Assembly: GCA_964453655.1 (NCBI GenBank)
Contig: CAYVSP010000005.1
Location: 1 to 37,648, forward strand
DNA length: 37,648 nt
Reading direction: 5' to 3'
From: an uncultured Candidatus Saccharibacteria bacterium
GTDB lineage: Bacteria; Patescibacteriota; Saccharimonadia; Saccharimonadales; CAYVSP01
Part shown: one piece after another, positions 1,306-24,818 of the stretch
Layout: every line of letters starts with the position of its first letter
Position numbering within the stretch: position 1 is the first letter of the stretch
The notes under the pieces: model-generated
What the model saw: only the letters and a program-made list of their open reading frames with translations
Told to the model about the DNA's origin: nothing
The model's database searches: none
Made by a program: the position numbers and the translations under genes

Positions 1306-2178
1306 CTATTCCAGCTTCTGTTTAAATTCCGATGGAAGGGGAGCTTCAAATGTATGCAGTAAATGATCAGGCAAGACTAAGGCGAGACTAAGCGCATGAA
1401 GATACAGCCTGCCAGATGGTTCACCGCCATAGAAGGCATCCCCTAGAATTGGATGCCCTAGCTGTTTTAAGTGAACTCTTAGCTGATGCGTGCGGCCGGT
1501 CAATGGTTGCAGTTCAAGCAAACTGAACTTAGAAGCAGCAGTTAAGACTTTGTATCTTGTTTGAGCCGACTTACCACCAACCGCCACACGAAAAGTGGCC
1601 GGCTTTTTGGGGTTGCGTTCAATCGGCATGTCAATAACTCCCTCTTTACTGGGTAATATACCTGAAACAATTGCTATATAGGTCTTTTGGACTTTGCGGT
1701 AGCTAAATTGGTTTTGCAGCCATTTCAAGGTTTCACTATTTTTGGCACAAACCATTACACCGCTGGTAGCTCGATCAAGCCGGTGGACAATACCGGCTCG
1801 CATTCCTTTTTGTTGAGTTTTTTGGCGCACAAAAGAGGCAACCGAAGGTTCGTCCCAGTATTTACTACGGCTATGGCTGATAATGCCGGCTGGCTTATTT
1901 ATGACTAACACATCTTTATCCTCATAAATAATTGGCAGCTCAATGGGTGCTATATTTTGCAAATCCTGCGCCTCAAAGTCGGTTTCAAGTTTATCGTCTA
2001 CTTTTACTTTACTACCAGCTTTAGCGCTCGCCCCATTCAATGTTATTCGTTCTTCGGCAATAAGCCGGTGAATATAACCACGGCTTAGCGAAGGAAAAAG
2101 CTCGCCAGCCACAACATCAAAGCGCTTGCCGACCTGTTCCGGCAAAATGCGCAAGGTCTTTGCCGGTTTAGTCTTCAT
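1306..2178 (-). CDS. RluA/RluD-family pseudouridine synthase with N-terminal S4 domain
   Basis: VINKPAG, GIVHRLDRATSG (catalytic Asp), TGRTHQLRVH, HPILGD; start moved to ATG 2178. Confidence 0.93.
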   Translation of the reverse strand: MKTKPAKTLRILPEQVGKRFDVVAGELFPSLSRGYIHRLIAEERITLNGASAKAGSKVKVDDKLETDFEAQDLQNIAPIELPIIYEDKDVLVINKPAGIISHSRSKYWDEPSVASFVRQKTQQKGMRAGIVHRLDRATSGVMVCAKNSETLKWLQNQFSYRKVQKTYIAIVSGILPSKEGVIDMPIERNPKKPATFRVAVGGKSAQTRYKVLTAASKFSLLELQPLTGRTHQLRVHLKQLGHPILGDAFYGGEPSGRLYLHALSLALVLPDHLLHTFEAPLPSEFKQKLE

Positions 2179-2317
2179 GCTGTTTCTTCTTTTTTGAACC
2201 AGAGAACGAGTCTTTAAAAAAGCGAATTCCCAAGGCAACTGCGCCGATGCCTAAGGCTAGTTCAAACAAACTATGGCCCAGATGCTCAAAACCTCCAAAT
2301 AAACCCTTCTCACTCAT
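2168..2317 (-). CDS. Small 49-aa putative membrane protein
   Basis: Manual translation MSEKGLFGGFEHLGHSLFELALGIGAVALGIRFFKDSFSGSKKKKQHED; ATGA overlap with trpS stop; fills the whole gap; hydrophobic helix followed by a basic tail. Confidence 0.65.
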   Translation of the reverse strand: MSEKGLFGGFEHLGHSLFELALGIGAVALGIRFFKDSFSGSKKKKQHED

Positions 2318-3336
2318 TGCTTTGATCGCAAACCAATAGCACGTTGCACACTAACAAGTTTTTGGTTGGCTTGCCGGTTCATTACCTCTTCGCTTGTCTC
2401 CAGTTTTTGCATGACCGTGTTCATATCCACCTGCTTTAGCTTGCTTTGAAATTCGTCTACAAAGTCCGCAAGCCTATCGCTTACCTTCTCTTTTAGGGGC
2501 CCGTACTTCGCCTGCCCCACAAAATCATTCGGATCACCGCCTAAAAGCTTTAAGATGTCTAGTAAGTTACTGATGCCGGGCTGATTTTGGTAATCATAGT
2601 TAATTTTGCCTAGCGAATCAGTCGTGGCGGCCATAACTTTTTGACGGGCTTCGTCAGGACTATCGTTCAGAAAGATGACGCCTTTGCCGCTTTCGTCACT
2701 CTTGCTCATCTTTTTGGCCGGGTCTAGCAGATCACGAACCCGCAACCCTTGATCCTTGCCAAAGAACCTATGTTGATCTGCTACAGGTTTAGGCACTGTA
2801 AAAAGAGCCCCGAACCGCTTGTTCATGCGCTGTGCCAAGTCACGGGTAAACTCTAAGTGCTGTGTCTGATCATCTCCGACGGGTACATAAGTTGCGTTGT
2901 ACAATAGTATATCTGCTGCCATGAGCACTGGGTAATTAAAAAGGCCTGCAGTCACTCGCTCTTTTGATAGTTTTGCTGCCTTATCCTTAAACTGTGTCAT
3001 GCGGCTAATCTCGCCGTAACCACTAAAGTTACTTAGTATCACCATCAGTTCACTGTGAGCTGGGACATGGCTCTCACGAAATAAGCAGACGTCAGGTATA
3101 TCAAGCGGGAGACCGGCGGCGGCGTATACACGGATGTTCTCAATGATTTGTTGGTATAGTGTGCTGTGGTTCACGGGCGTATTGAAGCTATGTAGATCGG
3201 CCATCATTAGATTGACCTGGTAGTCTCGTGAGTGTTTTTTTGCCATATCAATCAAAGGCAAGAGTGCACCAAAATAATTACCAAAGTGCAGGTCATTATT
3301 TGCCCTAAGGCCTGTTAAGATTACTGTTTTACTCAT
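2314..3336 (-). CDS. trpS: Tryptophanyl-tRNA synthetase
   Basis: HFGN (HIGH-type), YPVLMAADILLY, VPVGDDQTQHLE, KMSKS; SD GGAGG. Confidence 0.97.
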   Translation of the reverse strand: MSKTVILTGLRANNDLHFGNYFGALLPLIDMAKKHSRDYQVNLMMADLHSFNTPVNHSTLYQQIIENIRVYAAAGLPLDIPDVCLFRESHVPAHSELMVILSNFSGYGEISRMTQFKDKAAKLSKERVTAGLFNYPVLMAADILLYNATYVPVGDDQTQHLEFTRDLAQRMNKRFGALFTVPKPVADQHRFFGKDQGLRVRDLLDPAKKMSKSDESGKGVIFLNDSPDEARQKVMAATTDSLGKINYDYQNQPGISNLLDILKLLGGDPNDFVGQAKYGPLKEKVSDRLADFVDEFQSKLKQVDMNTVMQKLETSEEVMNRQANQKLVSVQRAIGLRSKQ

Positions 3337-3406
3337 ATTTCCTCCATTATATCTTAAATTTTCGTACGACGCCTCTTGCCTACTACACCTTAGCCTTTTC
3401 GCATTA

Positions 3407-3658
3407 TCAGTTTCTTCTATAGATTGTCATGCTTGATGTGCCTGGTACGAAAATATAGCCATTAGATAACATTTCAGCAATTTCCTGACTACTATAGGTG
3501 TCGTAATCTACTTGGCCCTGGAATCGACAATCACCTTCGGAAAGTGCTTCGTAGCCGTAGTGAAGCAAGTCTTCAATAGACAATACGTGACTATTACCAT
3601 CATTCATATATCCACAGCGGTAAAGTCCATCCGGACTTCCATCATTAAATTCACTCAT
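3407..3658 (-). CDS. Hypothetical acidic protein (83 aa)
   Basis: ATG 3658 preceded by AAGGAG; no recognisable family. Confidence 0.6.
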   Translation of the reverse strand: MSEFNDGSPDGLYRCGYMNDGNSHVLSIEDLLHYGYEALSEGDCRFQGQVDYDTYSSQEIAEMLSNGYIFVPGTSSMTIYRRN

Positions 3659-3675
3659 CTTGTTCTCCTTACAAT

Positions 3676-3698
3676 TAAAAAACTCCCTTGCGGGAGTC
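3676..3698 (-). terminator. Rho-independent terminator-like hairpin
   Basis: Minus strand ACTCCC-GCAA-GGGAGT followed by a T run. Confidence 0.7.
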
Positions 3699-3805
3699 AC
3701 TCTAAAACTTACTAAAATTCACAAATTCAAATAGACTCCCAAATATATTGAGAGTTCCACCAAGCTCCTTGTTGCACGAAACCGTTTAGTATAATGTCTA
3801 GCATC

Positions 3806-4114
3806 TTATTTCCCCTGTCCAGCTTTGGTTAACTGCTGATAGCGAACACACATTGGCTCATCAAGCTGCTTACATGTATAGCAATTGGGCTCATTATCAA
3901 TAATCATAAGACACGTTCCACCGACACGCTCAAGACGGCTGACGGCGCGACCTCTGGAAACGAATACATGCGCATTTTCATAGGTTTCGTTGACTGTGTC
4001 CAACCCTGCTACGTATCTTAGCTCATCAAGTGTTAATATTTCTCTTACCATAATTCTTTGCCTTCTTATTACATTAAAAAACCACCTGTTTAGGCGGTTG
4101 CTTTTCCCAGACAC
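3806..4114 (-). CDS. Hypothetical protein with C-terminal Cys cluster; start may be ATG 4051
   Basis: ORF track; C-x9-CxxC-x7-C; no recognisable family. Confidence 0.5.
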   Translation of the reverse strand: MSGKSNRLNRWFFNVIRRQRIMVREILTLDELRYVAGLDTVNETYENAHVFVSRGRAVSRLERVGGTCLMIIDNEPNCYTCKQLDEPMCVRYQQLTKAGQGK

Positions 4115-4197
4115 AAAGTAAATACTAGCTTACCGCCTCCAATGAGTCTGTAAACCAAAAATATAAATTACTTTGCATGTCTTGTGACATGACAAGT

Positions 4198-4226
4198 ATT
4201 ATACCACCACTATTAGTAGCTGTCTA
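4198..4226 (-). promoter_or_regulatory. Sigma70-type promoter immediately downstream of rpsI
   Basis: TAGACA-N17-TATAAT with TGn extension; the -35 overlaps the rpsI TAG stop. Confidence 0.6.
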
Positions 4227-4622
4227 GCGTTTAGTAAATTGTCGCTGTTTGCGGGCGCCGCGCAGGCCAAACTTCTTGCGTTCTTTTTCGCGAGGGTCAC
4301 GCCCAAGTAGGTCGGCCCGTTTTAGTGTACTTCTTAGATCTTCATTCATAAGGGCTAGAGCTTTTGCAATGCCCAGCTGTATAGCATCAACTTGACCACT
4401 GTGGCCGCCACCTGATACCACTGCGCTTACGTCATACTTATTATGCAGCTCAACTACCACTAACGGGCGCTCCAGCTCTCTAACTAGGCGCTTACTGGTG
4501 CCCAGGTACTCTTGGGCCGGTTTGCCATTTATAGTAATTTGGCCTTTGCCGCCCTGCAAACGAACGCGGGCTGTTGCGCTTTTGCGTCTTCCTAAAGCAT
4601 AAAAGTAACTGTCTTTAGCCAT
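4224..4622 (-). CDS. rpsI: 30S ribosomal protein uS9
   Basis: GRRKSATARV, GGGHSGQ, KERKKFGLRGARKQRQFTKR. Confidence 0.98.
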   Translation of the reverse strand: MAKDSYFYALGRRKSATARVRLQGGKGQITINGKPAQEYLGTSKRLVRELERPLVVVELHNKYDVSAVVSGGGHSGQVDAIQLGIAKALALMNEDLRSTLKRADLLGRDPREKERKKFGLRGARKQRQFTKR

Positions 4623-5063
4623 CTACTTATCTTCCCTTAAGCTAAGCGTCAGTGGCTTCTGGGCTGTGTGCTCATGCTCGTTGCCAGGATATACCTTAAG
4701 TCTTTTAAGTCGACCGGCGCGCAATTTATTAACAGGCAACATTCCACGAATGGCATGCTCAACGACTTTAGTAGCGTCTCGTTGCATCTGTTCTTCGAGC
4801 GTCCGCTCCTTTAGGCCACCAGGGAATTGGCTATGTCGATAGTAGGTCTTGGTTGTTGTCTTATTTCCGGTAACGACTAGTTTTTGGGCATTAACTACAA
4901 TCACAAAGTCGCCACAATCAATGTGTTGGGTAAATTGAGGCTTGCCTTTTCCTATCAATAATTGTGCTGCTTGGGTGGCAAGGCGGCCAAGTGGAATTTG
5001 GCCAGCATCAAGTACGTACCACAGTCGTGTCACATCGGTTGGTTTAGCGCTATAGGTTTTCAT
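4623..5063 (-). CDS. rplM: 50S ribosomal protein uL13
   Basis: WYVLDA, LGRLA, DCGDFVIVVNA, AIRGMLP. Confidence 0.98.
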   Translation of the reverse strand: MKTYSAKPTDVTRLWYVLDAGQIPLGRLATQAAQLLIGKGKPQFTQHIDCGDFVIVVNAQKLVVTGNKTTTKTYYRHSQFPGGLKERTLEEQMQRDATKVVEHAIRGMLPVNKLRAGRLKRLKVYPGNEHEHTAQKPLTLSLREDK

Positions 5064-5608
5064 TAGCGATCACCTCTGCGCCCGGTTCGTTTAGGAGCTT
5101 GGATGTTTTGGGCTGCTTTGCTTGCGGATGACTTTTGCTCTACAAGCGGCTTGTTGGAGCCTTCATCCCGACTGCCTAGGTCATGTTGTTGCTTTTTTGG
5201 TTGTTTTTGAGTATCTTTTGCGGCATCGGCTTCAGCCCCAGAAGCTTTGATATCATCAACAAAACTGACTTGTGCCATTTGCGCATTATCGCCGCGGCGT
5301 CTGCTTTTTGCTTCAATTTTTAAATGGCCGCTGTTTCGCTTGTTAAGTTTTGGTGCGATTTCATCCATTAACTTATGAGCACTTGCAACTGTTTGCAAAT
5401 CTTGCAATAACTGCCGGCGAGCAGCTAGATCGCCTCGTTTGGCTTTAGTAATGAGCTTTTCAACATAAGGGACTAGCTCTTTAGCCTTAGGCATTGTGGT
5501 TTGAATTGCCTCATGAATAATCAAAGCCTCAGCTAAACTCTTAAGTAGAGCCTGTCGCTGATCACGTTCCCGGTGAAGCTTTCTACCTTGATAGCCGTGT
5601 CGATGCAT
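5063..5608 (-). CDS. rplQ: 50S ribosomal protein bL17 with C-terminal extension
   Basis: MHRHGYQGRKLHR, IQTTMPKAKEL, RRGDNAQMA; follows rpoA. Confidence 0.97.
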   Translation of the reverse strand: MHRHGYQGRKLHRERDQRQALLKSLAEALIIHEAIQTTMPKAKELVPYVEKLITKAKRGDLAARRQLLQDLQTVASAHKLMDEIAPKLNKRNSGHLKIEAKSRRRGDNAQMAQVSFVDDIKASGAEADAAKDTQKQPKKQQHDLGSRDEGSNKPLVEQKSSASKAAQNIQAPKRTGRRGDR

Positions 5609-5611
5609 ATT

Positions 5612-6556
5612 CTATAGCTCCAGCTCTGCCATTTTCTCTTTTACTTCATCGAGCGCTTTGCTGCCAAAGCCTTTTAGGTCTCTAAGCTCGGCATCACTTA
5701 AGCTAAATAGATCTTTCAGCGTGTGAATATCGTTATTAACCAGGGCATTAGTAGTGCGAGCTGAAAGATTGAGGTCTTCTATTGACGTCATAAGCTCAGC
5801 CGGTTCCTCGTTTTCTTCACCTTCGTCGCCAGCTAGCTGATCGCTAAGAGCCGGGCCGGCTTCAACCCGTGTCTGGCCAGCTAGGGCTGTGTACTGATTG
5901 ACAAGAATGGCTGCAGCTTCTTCAAACGCGTCGCGCGGCGTGATAGAGCCGTCGGTATCAATCGTCAAAAGCAGCTTATCAAGGTCAGTCATCTGACCGA
6001 CGCGAGTATTTTCCACCTTATAACGCACGCGCATCACCGGGCTGAAAATAGCATCCACAGCGATCATATCGCTACTGGTCTTACGGTTAGCTCCTTCTTC
6101 AATAGTGCGGTAACCACGGCCGGTCTCAACTATCAAGTCGATGGAAAGAGTTGCTTTGCTGTCTTCAAGCGTTGCAATGACTTGATCGGGATTGACTATT
6201 TCAACGTCTGCCGTTGCCTGGATATCTTTAGCTGTGACGACACCTTTACCTTTTTTAATAAGGCGGACAGTTTGGGTATCATTTCCGAACACGCGAAAGC
6301 GAACACCTTTTAAATTAAGCATTATGTCAACGACGTCTTCTTTAACGTGTGGCAAAGTCGTAAACTCATGCGTTATTCCTTCTACCTTAAACGCCGTAAC
6401 CGCTGCTCCGGCTATGCTTGAGAGTAATACTCGCCGCAGGCTATTGCCAAGCGTCATCCCGTAGCCGCTATGTAACGGTTCGACAACAAATGTTGCGCTA
6501 TTGGCGCCATGATCATCGATTTTTACAAGTGCCGGGGTGTGTATTGTTTTAGACAT
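5612..6556 (-). CDS. rpoA: RNA polymerase alpha subunit
   Basis: EPLHSGYGMTLGNSLRRVLLSS, VDAIFSPV, CTD LSARTTNAL...GFGSKA. Confidence 0.99.
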   Translation of the reverse strand: MSKTIHTPALVKIDDHGANSATFVVEPLHSGYGMTLGNSLRRVLLSSIAGAAVTAFKVEGITHEFTTLPHVKEDVVDIMLNLKGVRFRVFGNDTQTVRLIKKGKGVVTAKDIQATADVEIVNPDQVIATLEDSKATLSIDLIVETGRGYRTIEEGANRKTSSDMIAVDAIFSPVMRVRYKVENTRVGQMTDLDKLLLTIDTDGSITPRDAFEEAAAILVNQYTALAGQTRVEAGPALSDQLAGDEGEENEEPAELMTSIEDLNLSARTTNALVNNDIHTLKDLFSLSDAELRDLKGFGSKALDEVKEKMAELEL

Positions 6557-6576
6557 TTTATCTCCTATAACCTTTC

Positions 6577-7200
6577 TTATCGTGAGTAATATTCAACGAT
6601 TAATTGTTCATTAATATCCGGTTCGGCTTCCTCCCTCGAAGGCAGACCAGATACAGTAACTTCCAATTTCTTGCGATTAACTTTCAGCCAAGCTGGAATT
6701 TGATCAGGGACTGCGGGGCTAGTATCGTCCAACTTCTTAAAATACTCGCTTTTTTGGCTTGCCAAGCGAGCCATAAAGACGTCGCCGACTTTTACACGCA
6801 TTGAAGGAATATCAACTCGCCGGCCATTTAGCGTAAAGTGCCCATGTGTAACTAGTTGTCGAGCGGCCCGTCTAGAAGGAGCAAAACCGGCCCGATAGAT
6901 AACGTTATCAGCTCGTCTCTCTAGAAACTCAAGCAAAACAGCCCCAGATTGACCCTTGCTCCGGCTAGACTCTTTCATAAGCTTAGAGAATTGCCGCTCA
7001 AGCAGTCCATAAAGACGCTTTACTTTCTGTTTCTCTCTCAGCTGCAGTGAGTATTGGCTAGCGCGCGAACGCCTACCAAAGCCACTAGCTTGCCCCCCGG
7101 GCGGTGTTGTACGCTTAACCAGTGCTTTGTGTGCCTTAGGATGCAGCGCGTAGCCTTCGCGGCGGCTCATTTTAACAATCGACTGTGTGTCACGTGCCAT
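6577..7200 (-). CDS. rpsD: 30S ribosomal protein uS4 (no zinc Cys motif)
   Basis: QLREKQKVKRLYG, ARQLVTHGH, INEQLIVEYYSR. Confidence 0.98.
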   Translation of the reverse strand: MARDTQSIVKMSRREGYALHPKAHKALVKRTTPPGGQASGFGRRSRASQYSLQLREKQKVKRLYGLLERQFSKLMKESSRSKGQSGAVLLEFLERRADNVIYRAGFAPSRRAARQLVTHGHFTLNGRRVDIPSMRVKVGDVFMARLASQKSEYFKKLDDTSPAVPDQIPAWLKVNRKKLEVTVSGLPSREEAEPDINEQLIVEYYSR

Positions 7201-7205
7201 AAGTG

Positions 7206-7640
7206 TTATACCCTTCGTGCCTTCCGTGGGCGAACACCGCCATGCGGGACCCCTGTAACATCTCTAACGGTATCAACTTGGAAATCCAGTGATTGTAAAG
7301 TACGAATGGCAGCCTCTCGGCCCAATCCAACGCCCTTTACATAGACCTCTATTTTATGCAGACCATAATTTTGCTTGGCAGCCTGGCCGGCGCGCTCGGC
7401 GGCAACTTGCGCGGCATAAGCAGTTCCTTTTTTGGACCCACGAAATCCGCAGGCACCGGCGCTAGAGGTCGTTAATACACCGCCGTTAGAGTCAGTAAAG
7501 CTCACAATTGTATTATTAAATGTCGACAAGATATGAACGCTACCAACTGAAACATTTCGCTTCGCCTTTTTCTTTTTAACAGAAGTGGGCTTAGCCGTCT
7601 TGGTCGTTTCCTCGGGGGGAGTTGCTATATCATCTGTCAT
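7206..7640 (-). CDS. rpsK: 30S ribosomal protein uS11
   Basis: STFNNTIV, GFRGSKKGTAYAAQ, PHGGVRP. Confidence 0.98.
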   Translation of the reverse strand: MTDDIATPPEETTKTAKPTSVKKKKAKRNVSVGSVHILSTFNNTIVSFTDSNGGVLTTSSAGACGFRGSKKGTAYAAQVAAERAGQAAKQNYGLHKIEVYVKGVGLGREAAIRTLQSLDFQVDTVRDVTGVPHGGVRPRKARRV

Positions 7641-7652
7641 CAGATTGCTTCC

Positions 7653-8039
7653 TTATGTCTTAGCCGGTACTTTTTTAGCAGTACCGCCAACCGTTATCTT
7701 CTTGCCTCGTCGTGTACGCGCATTAGTGCGAGTGCGTTGCCCGCGTGTGGGCAGGTTAGCTTTATGTCTTATCCCGCGGTAGCTATTGATATCCTTCAGA
7801 CGTTTAATGTTAGCCGTCACAATGCGCTGCAATTCACCTTCGACGACTAAATCAGCGTTAATAGCCTCCTGAAGACGGGTTATCTCTGCTTCCGTTAAAT
7901 TTTTAACGCGCACGGTCGGCTCGACTTTAGCTACTTTCAGTATGTTGGCGCTGGACTGAGGCCCGATACCATAAATATAGGTAAGAGCGACTTGAACTTG
8001 CTTGTCAGAAGGAATTGTAACACCGGAAATTCTGGCCAT
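7653..8039 (-). CDS. rpsM: 30S ribosomal protein uS13
   Basis: MARISGV, ALTYIYGIG, RGQRTRTNARTR. Confidence 0.99.
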   Translation of the reverse strand: MARISGVTIPSDKQVQVALTYIYGIGPQSSANILKVAKVEPTVRVKNLTEAEITRLQEAINADLVVEGELQRIVTANIKRLKDINSYRGIRHKANLPTRGQRTRTNARTRRGKKITVGGTAKKVPAKT

Positions 8040-8041
8040 AC

Positions 8042-8158
8042 TTACCCTTGTCTCTGCTTGTGCTTCGGCTTAAATTTATTAATTACATATAGCCGCCCTT
8101 TACGGCGGACTATCTTATCATCTGGACTAATTTTCTTAACACTCGCACGCACTTTCAT
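8042..8158 (-). CDS. rpmJ: 50S ribosomal protein bL36, Cys-free form
   Basis: Manual translation [38 protein letters not shown]; SD AGGAGG; between infA and rpsM. Confidence 0.97.
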
Positions 8159-8202
8159 GCGGATCATCCTCCTACAGTACTATCGATGACACACTGCGTT
8201 AA

Positions 8203-8424
8203 TTATGATTTGCGGTAGGTTATTCGACCCTTCGTAAGATCGTAAGGTGTCAGTTCAACCGTCACGCTGTCACCAGGAACGATGCGGATATAATGCTTTC
8301 GCATCTTGCCGGCAACATGAGCTATAATTCTGTGTCCGTTTTCAAGCTCTACCCGAAACTGTGTTCCTGGTAGCGTTTCAATAATCGTACCAGTAAGCTG
8401 GATTACTTCTTTACTCGCGGCCAT
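8203..8424 (-). CDS. infA: Translation initiation factor IF-1
   Basis: [31 protein letters not shown]. Confidence 0.99.
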
Positions 8425-8442
8425 AAATATAACTAAGGCGTA

Positions 8443-8472
8443 AGTATAGCAGTTTTCGCCCCCGTTTGTAAA
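8443..8472 (-). promoter_or_regulatory. Putative infA/alpha-operon promoter
   Basis: TTTACA-N18-TATACT with TGn extension in the secY-infA gap. Confidence 0.5.
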
Positions 8473-8492
8473 GTGTTTTTAAGCTGTTTATT

Positions 8493-10007: not shown

Positions 10008-10069
10008 AAAGTGTTAAGCCCTCATTATTACCGGTTTATTTAAACATACGACTATATAAAAACGAAGAA

Positions 10070-11972: not shown

Positions 11973-11974
11973 AA

Positions 11975-12649: not shown

Positions 12650-13218
12650 TAGTTGTTCTCCTTTTCAAACGGCATACCGAACTTCTCTAGTAAGACTCTG
12701 GCATACTCAGGTTTATTAGTATCTACTACGAAAATCACTTGTACACCATGAGGGGTCGTCGTGTCTTCAAATGTTAATTCCGGAAAGATCGATTGTTCAT
12801 TGAAACCTATCGCAAAATTACCCTGTTTATCAAATGAAGAGCTTCTAACCCCATGAAAATCGCGTAGACGAGGCAGCACGACATTTATAAGTCTGTCCAT
12901 GAACTCATACATTCGCGCATCTCTGAGCGTCACTTTGAGGCCAATTTTATTACCTTCACGCAACTTAAAGCTAGCGATTGACTTCTTGGCAAATGTCTCG
13001 ATAGGCTGTTGGCCTGTCACTTTTCGGAGTGTATTAGTTGCTGCTTCCATCGCTTTCTTGTCATCCTTGGCTCTACCAAGCCCTACATTCAGTATGATCT
13101 TTTCCAGTTTTGGTACCTGATGTCGGTTATTAAGTTTTAATTCTTTTTCCAGTTCCTTAACGATCGAAGTATTGTACTGTTGTTTCAAGCGGGCCATCTG
13201 ATTAGTTGAGGCAGTCAT
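12649..13218 (-). CDS. rplE: 50S ribosomal protein uL5
   Basis: [27 protein letters not shown]. Confidence 0.98.
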
Positions 13219-13337
13219 TATTTGACCTCCTTTTCAACGGCTTCGCCTTTTGAGACAAACCTGCGGTTTTTCTCAACGCGCAGCGTTTGGAATGAATCCA
13301 AAGCTCTGGCTCTCTTTTCCCTAAAAAAAGCAATCAT
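13218..13337 (-). CDS. 39-aa basic micro-protein bridging rplX and rplE
   Basis: Manual translation MIAFFREKRARALDSFQTLRVEKNRRFVSKGEAVEKEVK; ATGA overlap with rplX stop and TAATG overlap with rplE start. Confidence 0.65.
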   Translation of the reverse strand: MIAFFREKRARALDSFQTLRVEKNRRFVSKGEAVEKEVK

Positions 13338-14521: not shown

Positions 14522-14524
14522 ACC

Positions 14525-14938: not shown

Positions 14939-14940
14939 TC

Positions 14941-15956: not shown

Positions 15957-15959
15957 ACT

Positions 15960-16235
15960 TTACTCCTGTGCCTTTGCTAATTTACCGCCGTGGCTTCGAA
16001 ACTTACGCGTCGGTGCAAATTCACCCAGCTTATGGCCAACCATATTTTCAGTAACAAACACCGGCACATGGACTTTCCCATTATGTACAGCAATGGTACG
16101 GCCAACAAATTCCGGTGAAATCGTTGAAGCGCGCGCCCATGTCTTCACAATGGTACGGTCTTCACTGCCTAAAGCAGCTACCTTCTTGGCTAGTTTAGGG
16201 TCCACAAACGGTCCTTTTTTCAATGATCTAGACAT
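15960..16235 (-). CDS. rpsS: 30S ribosomal protein uS19
   Basis: [30 protein letters not shown]. Confidence 0.99.
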
Positions 16236-16539
16236 CGGAAACCTCCGACGATTGTGTCGGTTCGTTCTTCATCGTCTTTATTGCATACGCAGAAAGCATT
16301 GCACCTAGTGCGAATTCGTCAGTATGTTGAAACGCATCCGTAACAGGATTTCCAGTTTTTCTTTCAATTGCTTTAGTAACTAGATCAGGCAGTGTATCCG
16401 AGCCATCGCCGGACTCCACAAATACAGCTTGTACTGCATTTGCGCCGTGAGCGAAGGCAAGCGCCGCTGAGGGATCCATTTCTGCCATTAAAGCTGTGGT
16501 TACTCTAGCTAAGCTTGTTTCACTATCAATAATAGTCAT
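16228..16539 (-). CDS. Hypothetical 103-aa acidic protein between rplB and rpsS
   Basis: Starts 2 nt after the rplB stop; overlaps rpsS start by 8 nt; contains the rpsS SD (GGAGG). Confidence 0.75.
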
Positions 16540-16541
16540 AG

Positions 16542-17378: not shown

Positions 17379-17738
17379 TTACTTCTTCTCCTTTTTGGCC
17401 TCTTTAGCAGCCTTTTTATCAACCTCAGCCTGCTTCTCTTCTTCTTGGGCAAAAATCGGTAATTTGTCACCCTTCTTAAGCTGTACATAAGCCCGTTTGG
17501 TATCACTACGCTTGCCCGATACTGGACGGCGTCGCTTATGGTAAGATTGCTTTACCTTGCCTTTGACTGTGGCTAAACGTACATCTTCAACAGCAACACC
17601 GTATTGCATGCTTACTGCCAAGGCAACGCCTAAACGATTAGCACTCTTTGGCACACTAAAAACGTAGGTATTAGCTTGTTGGCTGAGTCCGTAAGCCTTT
17701 TCACTGATGCGAGGGCGAAGAATCATAGTTTTGCTCAT
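17379..17738 (-). CDS. rplW: 50S ribosomal protein uL23
   Basis: PRISEKA, YVFSV, KRAYVQL; between rplD and rplB. Confidence 0.96.
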   Translation of the reverse strand: MSKTMILRPRISEKAYGLSQQANTYVFSVPKSANRLGVALAVSMQYGVAVEDVRLATVKGKVKQSYHKRRRPVSGKRSDTKRAYVQLKKGDKLPIFAQEEEKQAEVDKKAAKEAKKEKK

Positions 17739-18376
17739 TATTTTTCGCCTCCGAGCCAGTCATGAACAATATCGAGTGCCTTTTGGCTCATAATGATACT
17801 GTCGGCATTCATAAGATCATATACGTTTAAATAGTTAGCGCTCACTAGGTTCAAATTAGGTATATTTTGCGTTGCTCGTTCTTTGGTTACGTCCTTTTGG
17901 CTAACTACGCACAGAACCCTTCCCTTAACTTCAAGTTTTTCTAACAATTTTGCCATGTCTTTAGTTTTTCCTTCCATTGTGGCAAAAGTTTCAATTATAC
18001 TCAGGCGTCCTTCGTCAGCAGCCATGCTAAGTGCTTGCCGCAAGGCTTGTCGCTTTACGCTGGTCGGAACTTTCTGGGTGTAATTCTGTTCGCCTGTCGG
18101 TCCAAAAGTAACGCCGCCGCCAGCCCACAGAGGGCTTCTAATAGAACCGGCGCGCGCTCTTCCAGTTCCTTTTTGGCGCCATGGTTTACGGCCGCCGCCG
18201 CGTACTTCACTGCGGTTTTTTACTTTAGCACTGGCAGCACGGCCGTTGGCAAGGTAGGCGTCATAAACCTGCTTTAAGAGCTGGTGATTTTTAGCTTTCA
18301 CGCCAAAAACGGTCTTGTTTAATTTGGCGTTGGTACTGGCCTTATTGCCAGTCTTGGTATAGGTCATAATTGCCAT
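17738..18376 (-). CDS. rplD: 50S ribosomal protein uL4
   Basis: RSEVRGGGRKPWRQKGTGRARAGSIRSP. Confidence 0.99.
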   Translation of the reverse strand: MAIMTYTKTGNKASTNAKLNKTVFGVKAKNHQLLKQVYDAYLANGRAASAKVKNRSEVRGGGRKPWRQKGTGRARAGSIRSPLWAGGGVTFGPTGEQNYTQKVPTSVKRQALRQALSMAADEGRLSIIETFATMEGKTKDMAKLLEKLEVKGRVLCVVSQKDVTKERATQNIPNLNLVSANYLNVYDLMNADSIIMSQKALDIVHDWLGGEK

Positions 18377-18987
18377 TAGTTGGCTCCCTTGATTAACACC
18401 AAACCCTTACGCGGCCCGGGGATTGCTCCGCTCACCCCGATAACATTCTTATCTGCATCAACTAGCGTGATAGTAAGATTGCGCACGGTCACTTGTTCGT
18501 GTCCCATGCGACCGGCCATTTTCTTGCCCTTGAAGATTTTCTGCGGATACATAGAACCTATTGAGCCGGGACGTCTGTACGAGCGGCCACCATGCGTTTT
18601 GCGTCCGCGGTGGAAGTTATGTCGCTTAATGGTACCTGCAAAGCCTTTGCCCTTGCTCACACCTACAGCATGGACTTTATCGCCAACAGTAAAAACATCG
18701 GCTTTCATTTGATCGCCGACGTTCATTTCTTCTGGTAGCTCTTCAACTCGAATCTCGCGTACATTCTTTACTAGTATTTTGGCTAGTTTAAAGTGCCCTT
18801 CAAGGCTTTTACTAACCTTCTTAGCTTTTTCACTGCCTATCTGTACGGCACTATAGCCGTCATTTTCGACTGATTTAAGTTGAGTAACGACATTTGGAGT
18901 AGCCGTAAGCAAAGTAATAGCCTCAACGCTGCCATTATCATTAATGGCGCTGGTCATACCAATTTTACGGGCTAGCAGGGCTTTCAT
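18376..18987 (-). CDS. rplC: 50S ribosomal protein uL3
   Basis: KIGMT, DGYSAVQIG, SKGKGFAGTIKRHNF, KKMAGRMG; start moved to ATG 18987. Confidence 0.98.
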   Translation of the reverse strand: MKALLARKIGMTSAINDNGSVEAITLLTATPNVVTQLKSVENDGYSAVQIGSEKAKKVSKSLEGHFKLAKILVKNVREIRVEELPEEMNVGDQMKADVFTVGDKVHAVGVSKGKGFAGTIKRHNFHRGRKTHGGRSYRRPGSIGSMYPQKIFKGKKMAGRMGHEQVTVRNLTITLVDADKNVIGVSGAIPGPRKGLVLIKGAN

Positions 18988-19124
18988 TATGCTTTGGATC
19001 CTTACTCCTGGGCTTTGTTGACTTAAGCGTAACAATAAAATGCTTGGCTATTCGTAGTATCTACCTCTGTTAGGGGCGGACTTGCGAACCAGCCAAGTAC
19101 CACAGAACTTTTAAATACCGTAAT

Positions 19125-19154
19125 AGATTAGCAGTAAACTTCTACCTCTGTCAA
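19125..19154 (-). promoter_or_regulatory. Putative rplC-operon promoter
   Basis: TTGACA-N18-TAATCT with TGn extension. Confidence 0.55.
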
Positions 19155-19172
19155 GCCGTTGTGGATTCTACA

Positions 19173-19424
19173 TTAAATATTTAAGTACAGTCCGAATGAC
19201 AACCAAAAGCCAATTAAGGCGGCTATGAGCAATACTGCATACTCAATTTTACGGTCAATTTGAAAATGCTCATGAGATGCAAAGATTAACCCTGTGATAA
19301 GGCCTATCGGCACAGGTATCTGCAAATTTTGTCCACGGTTAATTTTAAGCCAAACCGAGCCAAGCATTAGATATAAAACTAATTTCATTAGATAAGCACC
19401 ATCTGTTTGGTTTGGCTTAGCCAT
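19173..19424 (-). CDS. Small membrane protein (about 3 hydrophobic segments)
   Basis: 83-aa ORF with hydrophobic helices around HEHFQIDRKIEY; TGnTACAAT 6 nt before ATG. Confidence 0.75.
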   Translation of the reverse strand: MAKPNQTDGAYLMKLVLYLMLGSVWLKINRGQNLQIPVPIGLITGLIFASHEHFQIDRKIEYAVLLIAALIGFWLSFGLYLNI

Positions 19425-19497
19425 AAGCGTATTGTAGCACTAGCATATAATGCCTCCCTTAGAGTTATTCTATAAAACAAAGATCTTAAAGTATGAG

Positions 19498-19526
19498 TTG
19501 ACCGCTGTTAATAATTATGTTACTAT
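19498..19526 (+). promoter_or_regulatory. Putative promoter of the plus-strand GNAT gene
   Basis: TTGACC-N17-TACTAT with TGn extension; second ATG (19533) lies 6 nt downstream. Confidence 0.55.
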
Positions 19527-19532
19527 ATGCTC

Positions 19533-20135
19533 ATGTCTGAACTATCGTTACTTTGTAAGCCTGAGGATCTATTGATTAACCCTACAGAAGTAGTTGGTTC
19601 ACACCTTATTCGCAGCCCTCGCGAAGGTGATGGATTGGCTTTTATGCCTACTCTTGAACTGCTTGCACGTGACCTGGAGACAGGCGAACCGGATTATGAT
19701 GATATTCATGAAATTGTTAATGCCGTTGAGTTTTCTACACAAGCCCTTATAAGCCGTCAATATGCTGTTGCTGAGAATTCAGATGGCCAGGTCGTTGGTT
19801 TGATGGGATTAAAGCCTCTTGATAGGCGAATGCGTCTTTATGCATTAACTAAAAAACCCGTTGAAGTAATCAACGCCTTTGTGCACCCGAACGAACAAGG
19901 TCACGGCGTAGGGCGCGCTTTATTGGCCCGAATAGAAGACATGGCAATAGAAAGGGGCTATGAGGAAATAGTATTAAACAGTGGCCCCCGTTATGAAAAA
20001 AGTGGCGGCTGGGAATTTTGGCAACATACTATTGGAGAGCCGGTATACATAGCTCACGGATACTACGGTGATGGTAGAAACGCTCCAGTCTGGCGTAAAT
20101 TACTAGCTAAAAGTGGTTCAGATGCTCAGGCTTAA
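19533..20135 (+). CDS. GNAT-family N-acetyltransferase
   Basis: GQVVGLMGL, FVHPNEQGHGVGRALL (acetyl-CoA motif A), ERGYEEIVL; alternative start 19527. Confidence 0.88.
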   Translation: MSELSLLCKPEDLLINPTEVVGSHLIRSPREGDGLAFMPTLELLARDLETGEPDYDDIHEIVNAVEFSTQALISRQYAVAENSDGQVVGLMGLKPLDRRMRLYALTKKPVEVINAFVHPNEQGHGVGRALLARIEDMAIERGYEEIVLNSGPRYEKSGGWEFWQHTIGEPVYIAHGYYGDGRNAPVWRKLLAKSGSDAQA

Positions 20136-20139
20136 CAGC

Positions 20140-20490
20140 CTACATCTTTATTTCGGCGTCGCAACCAGCTGGCAAGGATAGGTTCATAAGACTATCGATT
20201 GTCTTAGGAGTTGGTTCTAGAACATCAATTAGGCGTTTATGAACACGCATTTCAAATTGCTCTCGTCCTTTTTTATAAACGTGCGGGCTTTTAATAACCG
20301 TGTAAACGGTGCGCTTGGTTGGTAGCGGAATAGGTCCGGCAATGGTTGCACCAGTTCGAATAGCGGTATCAACAATCTGCTTCGCCGACTGATCAATTAC
20401 TTTATGATCATAAGCTTTTAAACGGATACGAATCCGTTGCTTGGTACTGGCTTCGGCTTTTGGAGCTGGTTTTTTCTTAGCCTCTGCCAT
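20140..20490 (-). CDS. rpsJ: 30S ribosomal protein uS10
   Basis: [31 protein letters not shown]. Confidence 0.99.
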
Positions 20491-20731
20491 CGGTTGTGCC
20501 TATGCCTTTGTTCATATCGACAGTTTGTACACCGGAAAGTCCACCGAGTACTTCTGCAACCGTGCTAAATTCAGAAACGGCACCATCAGATTCAACCAAG
20601 TCCACCGGAACAGTGCCTTCCCAGTAACTTCCTGCGTCCAAGGCTCTTTGAGTTCCTTCAGGACTATCAGTCGCGATATAGCGGCGCACAATTTCGCCAC
20701 CCATTGAATCCTCAACGCGATACACTTTCAT
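20477..20731 (-). CDS. Hypothetical 84-aa acidic protein directly upstream of rpsJ
   Basis: ATG 20731 preceded by AAGGAG; overlaps rpsJ start by 14 nt. Confidence 0.65.
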
Positions 20732-20817
20732 ATAGAACTCCTTGTGATGTAACATCCCTTAATTCTTATGTAGAAGAAGTAAGTGACTTTTAGTCATCAC
20801 TATTATTTAATGATGTA

Positions 20818-20845
20818 ATTATAGCCTGAAACCTCAAAATGTAAA
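20818..20845 (-). promoter_or_regulatory. Putative promoter for the orphan-rpsJ unit
   Basis: TTTACA-N16-TATAAT just downstream of the tuf terminator. Confidence 0.55.
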
Positions 20846-20863
20846 GAATAAAGTGACGTGAAT

Positions 20864-20891
20864 GAAAAGAGCCCTATTTTTGGGCTCTTTC
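20864..20891 (-). terminator. tuf terminator
   Basis: AAAGAGCCC-AAAAATA-GGGCTCTTTT; preceded by a second hairpin TCCGCT-AGTC-AGCGGA (20904-20919). Confidence 0.8.
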
Positions 20892-20923
20892 CTCGGCTTC
20901 TCGTCCGCTGACTAGCGGAAATC

Positions 20924-22105
20924 TTATTTATTGATCTTGGTAACAACACCGGCACCAACGGTTCGGCCGCCTTCGCGGATAGCGAAGCGAAGACCTTGCT
21001 CCATTGCAATTGGCGCAAGTAATTTAACCTTAAATGTTACGGTGTCGCCCGGCATAACCATTTCTTTATCGGCTGGCAATTCAACCTCACCGGTTACATC
21101 TGTAGTACGGAAGTAAAATTGCGGCTTATAGCCTTTAAAGAAAGGTGTGTGGCGCCCGCCTTCATCTTTATTCAAGATGTAAACTTCAGCATCAAATTCG
21201 GTATGAGGTGTAATAGTGCCCGGCTTAGCTAGCACTTGTCCGCGCTCAATGTCTTCACGCTCAATGCCGCGAAGCAGTATACCAACGTTGTCGCCGGCTT
21301 GACCTTGGTCAAGGTTCTTCTTGAACATTTCAACACCTGTCACAACACTTTTCTTGGTCGGACGAATGCCAACAATTTCAATCTCTTCGTTGACTTTAAC
21401 GACTCCGGTCTCAACACGTCCGGTTGCGACAGTACCGCGTCCCTTAATCGAGAAGACATCTTCAATTGGCATCAAAAATGGCTTGTCTAGATCGCGCTTT
21501 GGCTCAGGAATGTAATCATCCATAGCCTTAATAAGCTCCATGATAGCGTCTTCATTGGTAGCGTCGCCTTCCAAAGCTTTAGTAGCTGAGCCTTTGATGA
21601 TGGGTGCATTTTCGTCGAAGTCGTACTTTTTAAGTAGCTCACGAATATCCATTTCAACTAGTTCAACTAGTTCAGGATCGGCTAAGTCCATTTTATTCAT
21701 GAAGACTAGTACGCTAGGTACACCAACTTGCTTGGCCAGCAAAACGTGCTCACGAGTCTGTGGCATAGGGCCGTCAGCAGCGGAAACAACCAAAATGGCG
21801 CCGTCAACCTGGGCCGCACCGGTAATCATGTTCTTAACATAGTCAGCGTGGCCTGGCATATCAACGTGGGCATAATGGCGCTTTTCGCTCTCATATTCTT
21901 GATGAGAAGTAGCAATCGTAATACCACGCGCTTTTTCTTCTGGCGCGTTATCAATTTCGTCATATTTAACCGGCTTATTAATGTCGCTCGGTAGTTTCTT
22001 AGCGAGTACCGCTGTAATAGCGGCGGTTAAGGTAGTCTTACCATGATCAACATGGCCCATAGTACCAACGTTGACGTGTGGCTTGCTTCTATCAAAGTCT
22101 GCCAT
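20924..22105 (-). CDS. tuf: Elongation factor Tu
   Basis: [33 protein letters not shown]. Confidence 0.99.
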
Positions 22106-22174
22106 TCATCTATCTCCTGTTATGTTGAATGATATTTTCGCATGAGCTAATACACCCACACGAGTTACCAAAAG

Positions 22175-22203
22175 ATATTACCTTATCTTAAGAGGTTTGT
22201 AAA
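22175..22203 (-). promoter_or_regulatory. Putative internal tuf promoter
   Basis: TTTACA-N17-TAATAT. Confidence 0.5.
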
Positions 22204-22206
22204 GTT

Positions 22207-22440
22207 CTATGGAATACTTTGAACAACGCTACCCGCAGTTGGTTGTGGACACACCTGGACAGATGAGAATGGTACGGCAAATCGACCAACTGTTATGCGT
22301 TCAGTGCGTGCGCCTGGACAGTCTAACGGACACGCAACCTGATCAAAATCAAAAAAAGCATCGGAAAGCATGGCTAATTTAAATTGAGCCACGCGTTGCG
22401 GACAGATTCCAGGGCTGTTGGTTTCTTTTTCTAACGGCAT
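22207..22440 (-). CDS. Hypothetical 77-aa protein with four Cys-Pro motifs between fusA and tuf
   Basis: ATG 9 nt after the fusA stop; CP, CPxxCP, CP. Confidence 0.6.
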   Translation of the reverse strand: MPLEKETNSPGICPQRVAQFKLAMLSDAFFDFDQVACPLDCPGARTERITVGRFAVPFSSVQVCPQPTAGSVVQSIP

Positions 22441-22449
22441 ATACTTCTT

Positions 22450-24537
22450 CTACTTAGCGTTCTTCGCGATAATGGCTTCAGCCACATTATTAGGCACATC
22501 AGCATAATGATCAAGCTCCATACTGGAACTGGCCCGTCCTTGAGTCATACTACGCAAGTTAGTGGTATAGCCAAACATTTCACCTAAAGGTACAAAAGCG
22601 GTAATTTCTTTAATGCCGGCCTGTAAATCCTCCATCGATTCGATGCGCCCGCGATTCGAGTTAAGATCACCAATTACATCACCCATAAAGTTCTCGGGAG
22701 TTATTACAACAACCTTCATAATCGGCTCAAGCAGAACGGGGTTAGCCTTCTTGACTCCCTCCTGAATTGCCATAGAACCAGCAATACTGAAAGCCATTTC
22801 TGAACTATCCACATCATGATAACTACCGTCATAAAGCTCGGCCTTGACATCAACCACCGGATAACCAGCGATAACGCCATTATTCAAGGCTTCTTCTATG
22901 CCTTTACGAGCAGCTGGAATATATTCGCTTGGAATGACGCCACCCTTTATGGAGTTAATGAATTCAAAGCCTTTGCCAGCCTCGTTCTGGCTCAATCGAA
23001 GCCAAACATGACCATATTGCCCGCGTCCACCTGTCTGACGAATATATTTACCCTCGGCTTCAACGCCATCTTTACGGATGGTTTCCCGGTAAGCGACTTG
23101 CGGTTGTCCGACATTTGCTTCAACTGTAAACTCGCGCTTCATACGATCCACGATAATCTCGAGGTGAAGTTCGCCCATACCTGAGATAATCGTTTGACCG
23201 GTTTCATCGTCAACTTTTATACGAAAGGTTGGATCTTCTTCGGCCAAGCGCTGCAGCGCCAAAGACATTTTTTCCTGGTCACTTTTTGTTTTAGGTTCAA
23301 TCGCGATGCTGACGGGCGGCTCGGGGAAGGTAATACTCTCCAGCACAACTGGATTATTCGGGTCAGTCAGCGTGTTGCCAGTAGTTGTACCCTTAAGGCC
23401 GACGATAGCTGCAATATCCCCGGCAGCTACTTCGTCAACATCTTCACGCTTATCGGCTTGCATACGCACGATACGCCCGACACGCTCTTTTTCACCTGTT
23501 GAGCTATTGAGAATATACGAACCGGCCTTAACTTTACCTGAGTAGACTCTGAAGAAAGCCAGTTTACCAACAAATGGGTCAGTTGCGATCTTAAATGCTA
23601 GCCCTGCAAAAGGTTCAGACTCGGCCGGGCTGCGTTCAATTTCGTCGCCAGTCTTGGGGTTAGTGCCCCATACCGACCCCCTTTCCAGTGGGCTAGGCAG
23701 GAAGTCATTAACAGCGTCAAGAAGCTTCTCTACGATGACACCCCGTCCGTCGCCACCGCTAACAGCAAAGAATTTACCAGTCAGTACAGCACTGCGAATA
23801 GCCGTACGGATATCTTCTTCATTTAATCCTTCTTCACCAACTTCAAAATACTTTTCAAGCATTTTTTCGTCTTCAGCGACAGCGTTCTCGATCAGCAAGC
23901 TGCGATATCTTTTGACTTCATCAGCCATATCAGCTGGAATTTCAGCCTCAACCAATTCGTGATCGGTATAGGTTTTATAGGTGTAGGCTTTCAGCGTTAT
24001 TAGATCAACAACGCCATTTATACTTTGTTCAAAGCCAATCGGTAGGTGAATCGGAAAAGCTCGCTTATTAAGTCGAGCATGAATTGATTCCAGTGATTTA
24101 TAAAAATCACCGCCCGTTTGGTTAATCTTGTTTATAAAGCAAATGCGAGGCACGCCATATTTGTCAGCTTGTCGCCAGACGGTCTCAGACTGACTTTCAA
24201 CACCCATTTTACCGTCAAAAACCACCACCGCACCATCAAGCACTCGCAAGCTTCGTTCAACTTCTACCGTAAAATCAATGTGGCCGGGGGTGTCAATAAT
24301 GTTGATTTTATGGTCTTTCCAAAAACAAGTAACTGCAGCGCTGGTGATAGTAATTCCACGTTCTCGCTCTTGCGCCATCCAGTCAGTAGTAGTTTCCCCT
24401 TCGTGAACTGCCCCAATCTTGTGTTTTAGGCCTGTGCGATAAAGGATGCCTTCAGTCGTCGTCGTCTTACCGGCATCGATATGAGCAATAATGCCAATGT
24501 TGCGGAACTTCTCTAGTGGATATTTCTTTTCAGCCAT
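22450..24537 (-). CDS. fusA: Elongation factor G (divergent G4/G5 motifs)
   Basis: [35 protein letters not shown]; str-operon position. Confidence 0.99.
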
Positions 24538-24542
24538 TATTC

Positions 24543-24818
24543 CTAAATCCCATTGCTTAAGTCGGGTTTATCGATCATTTCTTGGGCAGGAGGTGGAGTG
24601 TTCGCACCAGAAAGGTAGCTTGCTACTTCAGTACAGGCAGAACTGCCTAATGCAAGCGGGAGGGCCAGTGGAAACAAAATTAAGTCGCGTATTGCTTCAG
24701 AAGGAGCCACATGTTCTGACGTTAAACCACTAACCAACGGACATAATCTGTTCGCCAAGGCATCTTGCCTGCTGGCTGTTCGTATAAGCAAGTCTGTTGC
24801 TATGCCGCGAATATCCAC
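24543..24818 (-). CDS. Hypothetical 91-aa protein between rpsG and fusA
   Basis: GTG 1 nt after the rpsG stop; ends 5 nt before fusA ATG; hydrophobic stretch [13 protein letters not shown]. Confidence 0.65.

Follow-up and report, generated by a model that had tools for sequence, protein, structure and literature searches.

Translationally coupled small open reading frames of differing nature at junctions between core translation genes in a Saccharibacteria genome

Few gene arrays of bacteria are as strongly conserved or as tightly coupled as the str, S10 and spc operons. In a 37,648-nt stretch of the genome of an uncultured Candidatus Saccharibacteria bacterium (contig CAYVSP010000005.1, hereafter the window; the genome is designated G000), six small open reading frames (ORFs) lie at junctions between translation genes, which raises the question of what these ORFs are and how they persist there. 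Gene names in the window were assigned by order and length and then confirmed by tblastn synteny with relatives. The six ORFs and the genes that flank them are all on the minus strand, and read 5' to 3' as rpsL, rpsG, ORF6, fusA, ORF5, a promoter-like site and tuf, followed by a hairpin, a second promoter-like site and a leader ahead of ORF4 and rpsJ. After rpsJ come a plus-strand GNAT gene and a hydrophobic ORF of 83 amino acids (aa), then rplC, rplD, rplW, rplB, ORF3 and rpsS, further on rplX, ORF2 and rplE, and later rpsI, two ORFs of about 100 aa, trpS, ORF1 and rlu.

Our reading is that the six are genuine passenger cistrons, translationally coupled to their neighbors and housed in permissive slots that separate core translation genes; they differ in nature and age, and we give this reading a probability of about 0.6. 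They are united by the architecture of the slot and differ in content, from a structured repeat (ORF2) to a conserved micro-protein (ORF1). In the architecture common to them, the start codon of an insert takes the place of the former start of the downstream gene and uses a Shine-Dalgarno (SD) sequence within the 3' end of the upstream gene or, for ORF4, that of the S10 leader. The frame stays open through the insert and ends on or just ahead of the downstream start. The last codons of the insert supply the SD of the downstream gene (GGAGG in ORF2 and ORF3, a weak one in ORF6), and ORF4, which has none, would rely on a 14-nt overlap with rpsJ. Such an architecture would preserve ribosome delivery to the essential downstream gene, and inserts would be expected to persist only when a coupled open frame is kept.

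An original prediction, made from the letters of this DNA, had placed six small same-strand ORFs at these junctions, and all six are present. It had described four as coupled at both ends, and this was borne out. ORF1 (trpS/rlu, 2168-2317, 49 aa) overlaps the trpS stop with its ATG (ATGA), and its last 11 nt overlap the start of rlu (1306-2178), a pseudouridine synthase-like gene. This overlap depends on moving the rlu start to the ATG at 2178, a change made since alignments with relatives reach back no further than about residue 26-39 of its long TTG frame; as read from the sequence, the N-terminus of the re-started rlu resembles the start of the relatives' rlu. ORF2 (rplX/rplE, 13218-13337), a 39-codon frame, overlaps rplX through ATGA and rplE through TAATG. 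ORF3 (rplB/rpsS, 16228-16539), which encodes an acidic sequence of 103 aa, begins 2 nt past the rplB stop and ends 8 nt into rpsS, and the GGAGG SD of rpsS lies in its last codons. ORF6 (rpsG/fusA, 24543-24818, 91 codons) has a GTG start 1 nt past the rpsG stop and ends 5 nt ahead of fusA. The two ORFs beside tuf are coupled at one end, again as predicted. ORF4 (tuf/rpsJ, 20477-20731, 84 aa, acidic; a longer form of 92 aa would start at 20755) lies 192 nt past tuf and ends 14 nt into rpsJ, and ORF5 (fusA/tuf, 22207-22440, 77 aa with four cysteines) begins 9 nt past the fusA stop and leaves 101 nt to tuf. The proposal that several ORFs carry the SD of the downstream gene holds for the GGAGG of ORF2 and ORF3 and, weakly, for ORF6; it fails for ORF4. 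No common motif or flanking repeat was found among the six inserts, in agreement with the prediction.

The sequence of each gap was shuffled 5000 times, asking for an ORF covering an equal share of the gap. Such an ORF arose in 0/5000 shuffles for ORF3, 7/5000 for ORF6, 71/5000 for ORF4, 160/5000 for ORF5 and 403/5000 for ORF2. An assembly artefact, which the prediction had named as grounds for dismissing the ORFs, was considered using contigs from four runs. These span every junction with 0-1 differences and carry identical sequence inside the ORFs. Since the four runs belong to one soil-metagenome study and possibly include the source sample, they are not independent support, and only a one-off mis-assembly is thereby excluded.

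Related operon regions were taken from 19 genomes of the same order, and the window proteins were mapped onto them. Over 20 loci, gaps of 90-520 nt between mapped genes were scored as filled when an ORF covered at least 90% of the gap; sense ORFs filled 45 of the 89 gaps and antisense ORFs 7, with a few of the 89 rows being artefacts of assigned gene ends (the rpsL tail of L015 and one N-run). The unfilled junctions are known carriers of promoters or leaders, namely mem83/rplC, rplO/secY and parts of fusA/tuf and tuf/rpsJ. A genome-wide survey of G000 gave 21 sense and 2 antisense fillings among 128 gaps, a contrast that says nothing about slot specificity, as many gaps are taken up by ordinary genes shorter than 110 aa.

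The boundaries of the inserts follow a consistent pattern. The rplB/rpsS junction is empty (gap of at most 12 nt) in 14 of 20 loci and holds an ORF of 86-122 aa in the other six. All six of these begin 1-11 nt past the rplB stop (1-2 nt in five, 11 nt in the genome G001), at the position where rpsS starts in the empty genomes, behind an AGAGGAG SD inside rplB. All stop within the first 9 nt of rpsS, whose conserved start (ATGAGTAGA / ATGTCTAGA) supplies TGA or TAG in both other frames, and each brings a purine-rich, usually SD-like stretch just ahead of the rpsS ATG. The rpsG/fusA gap, 233-630 nt long, is occupied in 12/12 loci (L020 with an uncertain rpsG end), and all 12 ORFs start 0-4 nt past the rpsG stop. 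Coupling at both ends thus holds generally for these slots. At fusA/tuf, 4 of 17 loci have a short gap of 107-128 nt with the promoter only, and 13 have a long one.

Codon usage was scored with a test trained on the long ORFs of the own genome, which yields two scores per ORF; the 95th percentiles of random open sequences were 0.06 and -0.028. When the test was applied to relatives, both thresholds were passed by 25 of the 36 slot ORFs that reach 60 aa, compared with 291 of 304 ribosomal-protein genes and 3 of 674 antisense ORFs. The repeat-borne frames of genome G016, three paralogs, failed, and the test thus separates relay frames, kept open to carry ribosomes downstream, from gene-like ones. 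These G016 frames, of 75-92 codons and 42-47% identical, occupy rplV/rpsC, rpsH/rplF and rpmJ/rpsM at one locus (L025) and have non-gene-like codons; the trio plainly represents an insert that is spreading and carries relay frames. In genome G032 (L016), six junctions (rplC/rplD, rpsK/rpsD, rpmJ/rpsM, rpmC/rpsQ, rpsC/rplP and rpsN/rpsH) hold inserts of 100-160 nt made of inverted runs of short tandem heptamer-like units, most ending in GACCGGAGGGAG plus the downstream ATG, each under an open coupled frame.

How stable is the content of a slot? The closest comparison is G001, a sister of the same genus, in which rpsS is 100%, tuf 96% and rplB 85% identical to the window. It carries ORFs of 146 aa at rpsG/fusA, 98 aa at fusA/tuf, 81 aa before rpsJ and 100 aa at rplB/rpsS, all four gene-like by codon usage, and none with significant DNA or protein similarity to the window ORF at the same place. 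Orthology of the inserts was rejected, as global DNA alignment gave z-scores of 0.6-1.0 at rpsG/fusA and rplB/rpsS, and local and global protein alignments gave z of at most 1.7. The two gaps flanking tuf gave DNA z-scores of 7-9, which we attribute to common promoter and leader parts. The two rplB/rpsS inserts, both of 306 nt, have an ungapped identity of 0.288, compared with 0.255 for shuffled sequences, a value reached by 510 of 5000 shuffles. Slot contents therefore seem to turn over quickly, by replacement or by very fast divergence, two routes that are not distinguishable in the G001 slots because synonymous sites are near saturation.

ORF3, ORF4 and ORF6 are orphans. ORF3 and ORF4 matched only themselves among 5.8 billion proteins, as did ORF3 in a full HMMER scan of 1.84 billion representatives, and six-frame searches of 200 genomes of the order turned up nothing credible for any of the three. 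Scans of the ORFs against Pfam, PHROGs and NCBIfam gave nothing above noise. By blastn and tblastn, ORF3, ORF4, ORF5 and ORF6 are each unique in their own genome, so they are not repeats. The GC content and the GC1>GC2>GC3 pattern of the ORFs match those of the neighbouring genes. The codon scores of ORF4 (0.259/0.136), the highest of the six, and those of ORF3 (0.130/0.100) lie within the range of real-gene fragments and above the 95th percentile of random sequence; those of ORF6 (0.015/0.043) fall between the random and real ranges. AlphaFold2 (AF2) models of ORF3 and ORF4 were made without an alignment, from single sequences. ORF3 was modeled as a helical bundle (mean predicted local distance difference test, pLDDT, 72; predicted template-modeling score, pTM, 0.58) and ORF4 as a low-confidence alpha/beta structure (pLDDT 59). 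A Foldseek search of the PDB with the ORF3 model gave no match at E of 0.001 or below (best E-value 3.3), and the ESM Atlas no usable match. ORF3 and ORF4 are thus species-specific orphans whose composition is native and gene-like, and ORF6 is an orphan of doubtful protein value. The gene-like orphans would be made as small acidic proteins, with a function that is probably accessory.

Several known sources for the four longer inserts were considered. An origin of the ORF3 to ORF6 inserts from intervening sequence (IVS)-like or hairpin elements was rejected, as neither terminal repeats nor RNA structure of any significance could be found in them. A 23S-type IVS cassette, in which a long stem flanks an S23p four-helix-bundle ORF (PF05635), was likewise rejected for ORF3, which has no Pfam match, no terminal inverted repeat, fold z-scores of -1.5 and -0.65, and no PDB match. 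An integron or cassette system with recombination sites was rejected for want of a common flanking repeat among the six inserts.

ORF4 occupies a particular place in the S10 operon. A promoter-like site, TTTACA-16-TATAAT (20818-20845, minus strand), the best of the scanned region with an 11/12 match, is followed by a conserved leader that ends in an AAGGAG SD (site and leader together 20732-20845). A weak terminator-like hairpin with a T-run after tuf (20861-20888, minus strand) was seen by eye and was not listed by the scan. Most related loci carry a promoter-like box, a GTGATGACTAAAAGTC hairpin and then GATGTTACATCACAAGGAG just upstream of rpsJ; in some relatives an ATG in the S10 leader opens a mini-frame of six codons (MLHHKE) that ends at the rpsJ start. 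In the window, the ORF4 ATG lies 7 nt past the leader SD, and rpsJ begins 14 nt before the ORF4 stop, without a good SD of its own. From its position behind the conserved leader SD, ORF4 has thus taken over the ribosome-binding site of rpsJ. It would be the first cistron of the S10 operon here, and rpsJ would now depend on coupling to it.

ORF5 belongs to a sparse family with four cysteines. The first relatives found were in the fusA/tuf gap of G029 (a weak six-frame match, E 9e-4) and just downstream of fusA in G018. Alignment of the three shows C13, C37, C41 and C64 to be invariant, in the pattern CP...C-x3-C...C. When 300 further genomes were searched with a profile, the sole addition was G089, where an ORF with the same cysteine pattern lies between fusA and tuf. 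The family thus comprises 4 of 301 genomes, from four different families, every time beside fusA. It is missing from the sister G001, whose 98-aa fusA/tuf ORF has no cysteine. This sparse but positionally fixed distribution favors the view that slot contents were replaced or transferred and did not simply diverge by vertical descent. The codon scores of ORF5 (0.001/0.043) fall in the ambiguous zone. Its four conserved cysteines are arranged in two pairs, as in zinc-ribbon-like mini-proteins; ORF5 matched no Pfam, NCBIfam or PHROGs family, hence no described zinc ribbon, and its ESM Atlas leads were all below 0.9. Acidic slot ORFs with four or five cysteines in CxxC-like pairs are also numerous at the rpsL/rpsG and rpsG/fusA junctions of relatives (L013, L014, L015, L021, L022, L026 and L028). 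They have no detectable sequence relation to each other or to ORF5, and the ORF5 profile was unrelated to the other cysteine-containing slot ORFs. A promoter-like site for tuf, TTTACA-17-TAATAT (22175-22203, minus strand, 9/12 match), lies just past the ORF5 stop, and the same CTTTACAA box stands immediately 3' of the fusA stop in the four short-gap loci. Ending just ahead of this box, ORF5 would therefore be the last cistron of the str transcript.

ORF1 is of a different kind. When 200 other genomes of the order were searched in six frames, eight (G002, G003, G004, G042, G061, G066, G074 and G115) had credible matches; two more matches were weak and lay within long frames. The homologue lies between trpS and rlu in all five loci inspected, other families included, and a protein collection holds six relatives of 47-54 aa, unnamed or labeled 'hypothetical'. 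The core of the alignment, MSEKGLFG..LGHGL.D.A.GIGA.ALG..FFK, is followed by a lysine-rich tail. The proportion of nonsynonymous differences (pN) is 0.15-0.37, compared with a saturated synonymous proportion (pS) of 0.61-0.91. ORF1 and its G003 copy are 77% identical (82.5% over the tblastn stretch), compared with about 63% for trpS, and ORF1 is more conserved than its neighbors. The same-genus G001 lacks it and has 13 nt between trpS and rlu. The codon score is gene-like, and the hydrophobic 19-mer maximum is 1.69. Purifying selection among homologues, conserved synteny and a hydrophobic helix, the features by which small membrane proteins are recognized, are all found in ORF1, which encodes a real, conserved single-pass membrane micro-protein under purifying selection.

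ORF2 lies at the other end of the range. Its DNA recurs in its own genome on contigs C4, C39 and C40, together with partial copies, and matches two further operon junctions of G001 (rplW/rplB and rplM/rpsI). The recurring element is a repeat of about 75 nt with two hairpins, whose core in the window spans 13238-13320 on the minus strand and which has copies both in this genome and in relatives. With a 96-nt query, matches were found in 22 of 41 genomes (a tally that includes the unpublished genome G038, on which no specific claim depends), at up to nine per genome, with four in G000 and nine in G001; copies lie at L055-L077, L013:9302-9404 and L032:2287-2389. An alignment of 26 copies from 13 genomes yielded a two-hairpin consensus with 20 predicted pairs, 15 of which show compensatory double changes; one covarying pair is CG in 11 copies, GC in nine and AU in five. 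The single-stranded parts are strongly conserved. Permissive Rfam scans found no family for the repeat, and a scan of the window at gathering thresholds returned one tRNA alone.

The surroundings of the 26 copies vary. At least nine directly adjoin a gene for tRNA or 5S rRNA, in most cases on its immediate upstream side and with matching orientation, and some copies sit in the 23S-5S spacer. Six lie in junctions between same-strand protein genes; the rest are next to tRNA or 5S genes or between genes that converge. The operonic copies share a layout of ATGA, a few nt, the core, GGAGG, a few nt and TAATG, with both ATGA and TAATG present in the window copy, the G000 C4 copy and two G001 copies. 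A single inserted nucleotide in one G001 copy throws the downstream frame out of register, and the peptide is therefore not what is conserved. The rplX/rplE junction is directly abutting, an empty site, in 16 of 18 related loci. By inspection of the 26 aligned copies, without a formal analysis, no consistent flanking duplication was visible. ORF2 is a relay frame across a structured, mobile or multicopy repeat and not a protein gene; the repeat itself may serve as a cis-acting signal, for instance in RNA processing, and so be more than selfish DNA.

Short repeats that keep a frame open have precedents. Rickettsia palindromic elements (RPEs) are found within protein-coding genes, where their translation product is incorporated into the host protein. 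Like these and other elements resembling miniature inverted-repeat transposable elements (MITEs), the ORF2 repeat is small and structured and would survive in an expressed region by keeping its frame open; unlike an RPE, its frame is a separate, doubly coupled cistron and no part of a host protein. MITE classes are reviewed in PMC3184786. Mycobacterial interspersed repetitive units (MIRUs), as described in PMC3184786 and PMC12548453, are short dispersed repeats between the genes of polycistronic operons. The ORF inside such a unit overlaps the stop codon of the preceding gene and the start codon of the following one (ATGA / TAATG), so that little harm results downstream. ORF2 resembles them in being dispersed and multicopy, in lying between co-oriented genes, in overlapping both neighbors and in having empty sites in relatives. 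It differs in phylum and in its unrelated sequence, in its two covarying hairpins and in also adjoining tRNA and 5S genes. ORF3 to ORF6 differ from MIRUs in being unique sequences rather than repeats, and are 2-4 times longer.

Other features of the window lie outside the six junctions. The hydrophobic 83-aa ORF between rpsJ and rplC (19173-19424, minus strand) is 44-65% identical in 14 of the 18 related loci that span the interval, and has no match in Pfam, NCBIfam or PHROGs. The S10 cluster is interrupted by a gene for a GNAT acetyltransferase that runs on the opposite strand (19527-20135); relatives have unrelated same-strand ORFs of 157-234 aa at this site, and a contig from run X3 joins 19171 to 20140 by 12 other letters, corresponding to a variant or relative without the GNAT block. 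Between rpsI and trpS, two GTG-start ORFs of 97 and 102 aa (3407-3700 and 3806-4114, minus strand) have weak codon scores and no family; G029 carries a 297-aa ORF at this place.

We next weighed other explanations of the six ORFs. Chance ORFs in non-coding spacers, or an assembly artefact, could be invoked for ORFs that are short and without annotation or family, and the openness of ORF2 is only marginally beyond chance (403/5000). The shuffle tests of ORF3 and ORF6, the excess of sense over antisense filling, the conservation of ORF1 and ORF5 and the reproduction of the junctions in four runs all disfavor this explanation, which we consider barely credible. Lineage-specific ribosome- or translation-associated proteins would be small acidic or four-cysteine products that bind ribosomal components, placed for stoichiometric co-expression. 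Their location within ribosomal-protein and elongation-factor operons would suit such a role, as would the acidity of most slot ORFs, which would complement basic ribosomal proteins, and the recurrence of four-cysteine mini-ORFs at the relatives' str-operon junctions. Contents that differ in a sister species and are absent from most relatives are hard to square with a conserved machine, and the family scans gave no similarity to a known ribosome-associated family, which makes this role improbable.

The more serious alternative extends the explanation of ORF2 to the orphans: ORF3, ORF4 and ORF6 would be functionless inserted DNA, kept open to carry ribosomes downstream, and their peptides would be throw-away products. 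That these three have no homologues anywhere searched fits this well, as does the presence in G001 of unrelated sequences of similar or equal length (306 and 306 nt) at the same junctions. The coding statistics of ORF6 are weak and its start codon is GTG, the paralogous frames of G016 and the heptamer hairpins of G032 are clear relay cases in relatives, and the behavior of MIRUs, as described in PMC12548453 and PMC3184786, offers a precedent. However, ORF3 and ORF4 score like real genes and the G016 relay frames do not; the helical bundle of ORF3 is confident enough for a model built without an alignment; the inserts are unique, non-repeat sequences without significant RNA structure; and 250-300 nt far exceeds what a relay needs. 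We regard a relay role alone for the three as possible, though unlikely.

Several points weigh against reading the six as real passenger cistrons. ORF3, ORF4 and ORF6 have no homologues in which selection at the amino-acid level would show, and the codon scores of ORF5 and ORF6 are ambiguous. The codon test evidently misses some real genes, as the low scores of the conserved ORF5 family show. The AF2 models, each built from one sequence, are of moderate confidence, with no fold or feature match, and gene-like composition could result from selection for harmless, efficiently translated peptides without function. No flanking repeats among the six inserts point to a mechanism of insertion or replacement.

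The observation of six coupled ORFs is thus confirmed, and the interpretation attached to it in the original prediction is partly supported, as the six are not one class. The prediction had called all six unrecognized, which stands for the orphans ORF3, ORF4 and ORF6, and not for ORF1 and ORF5, which have relatives, or for ORF2, a dispersed repeat. The comparison of junctions that it proposed revealed all three of its outcomes in related genomes, namely an empty site, the same cargo or a different cargo. Of its three readings, those of passengers and of insertion fit this comparison, and ribosome association is backed by nothing that was tested.

Passenger genes in such operons are not new in themselves: secY, adk, map and infA of the spc operon are non-ribosomal, universal, essential and conserved. 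The slot ORFs resemble them as same-strand cistrons embedded in, and presumably co-expressed with, ribosomal-protein operons, and differ in being tiny, mostly lineage-specific and variable between species of one genus. They also resemble accessory-gene hotspots flanked by core genes, in which one conserved junction holds different cargo in related genomes; the slots differ in lying inside essential coupled operons, in holding single micro-genes and in having no integrase or repeat signature. A literature search returned no description of such inserts in Saccharibacteria, only general papers on coupling.

These results portray the str, S10 and spc operons of a whole order of ultrasmall symbionts as peppered with lineage-specific, doubly coupled micro-genes, with translational coupling acting as a filter on permitted insertions. 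As a speculative and rather doubtful extension, the operon junctions of Saccharibacteria might serve as a cradle for new genes: DNA that lands there would have to stay an open, coupled frame, and would be highly translated from the outset. Over time the product of an insert might evolve toward a harmless acidic peptide, later acquire the fold of a micro-protein and, in occasional cases, found a conserved family, with the window holding possible stages in the relay repeat of ORF2, the weak filler ORF6, the gene-like orphans ORF3 and ORF4, the sparse family of ORF5 and the conserved family of ORF1. In genomes of the candidate phyla radiation (CPR), annotation can easily overlook or mislabel both the slot ORFs and the 75-nt repeat. 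Dozens of undescribed small proteins, presumably very highly expressed, become candidates for study, and the slots offer a natural system for how new genes arise or are exchanged within essential operons.

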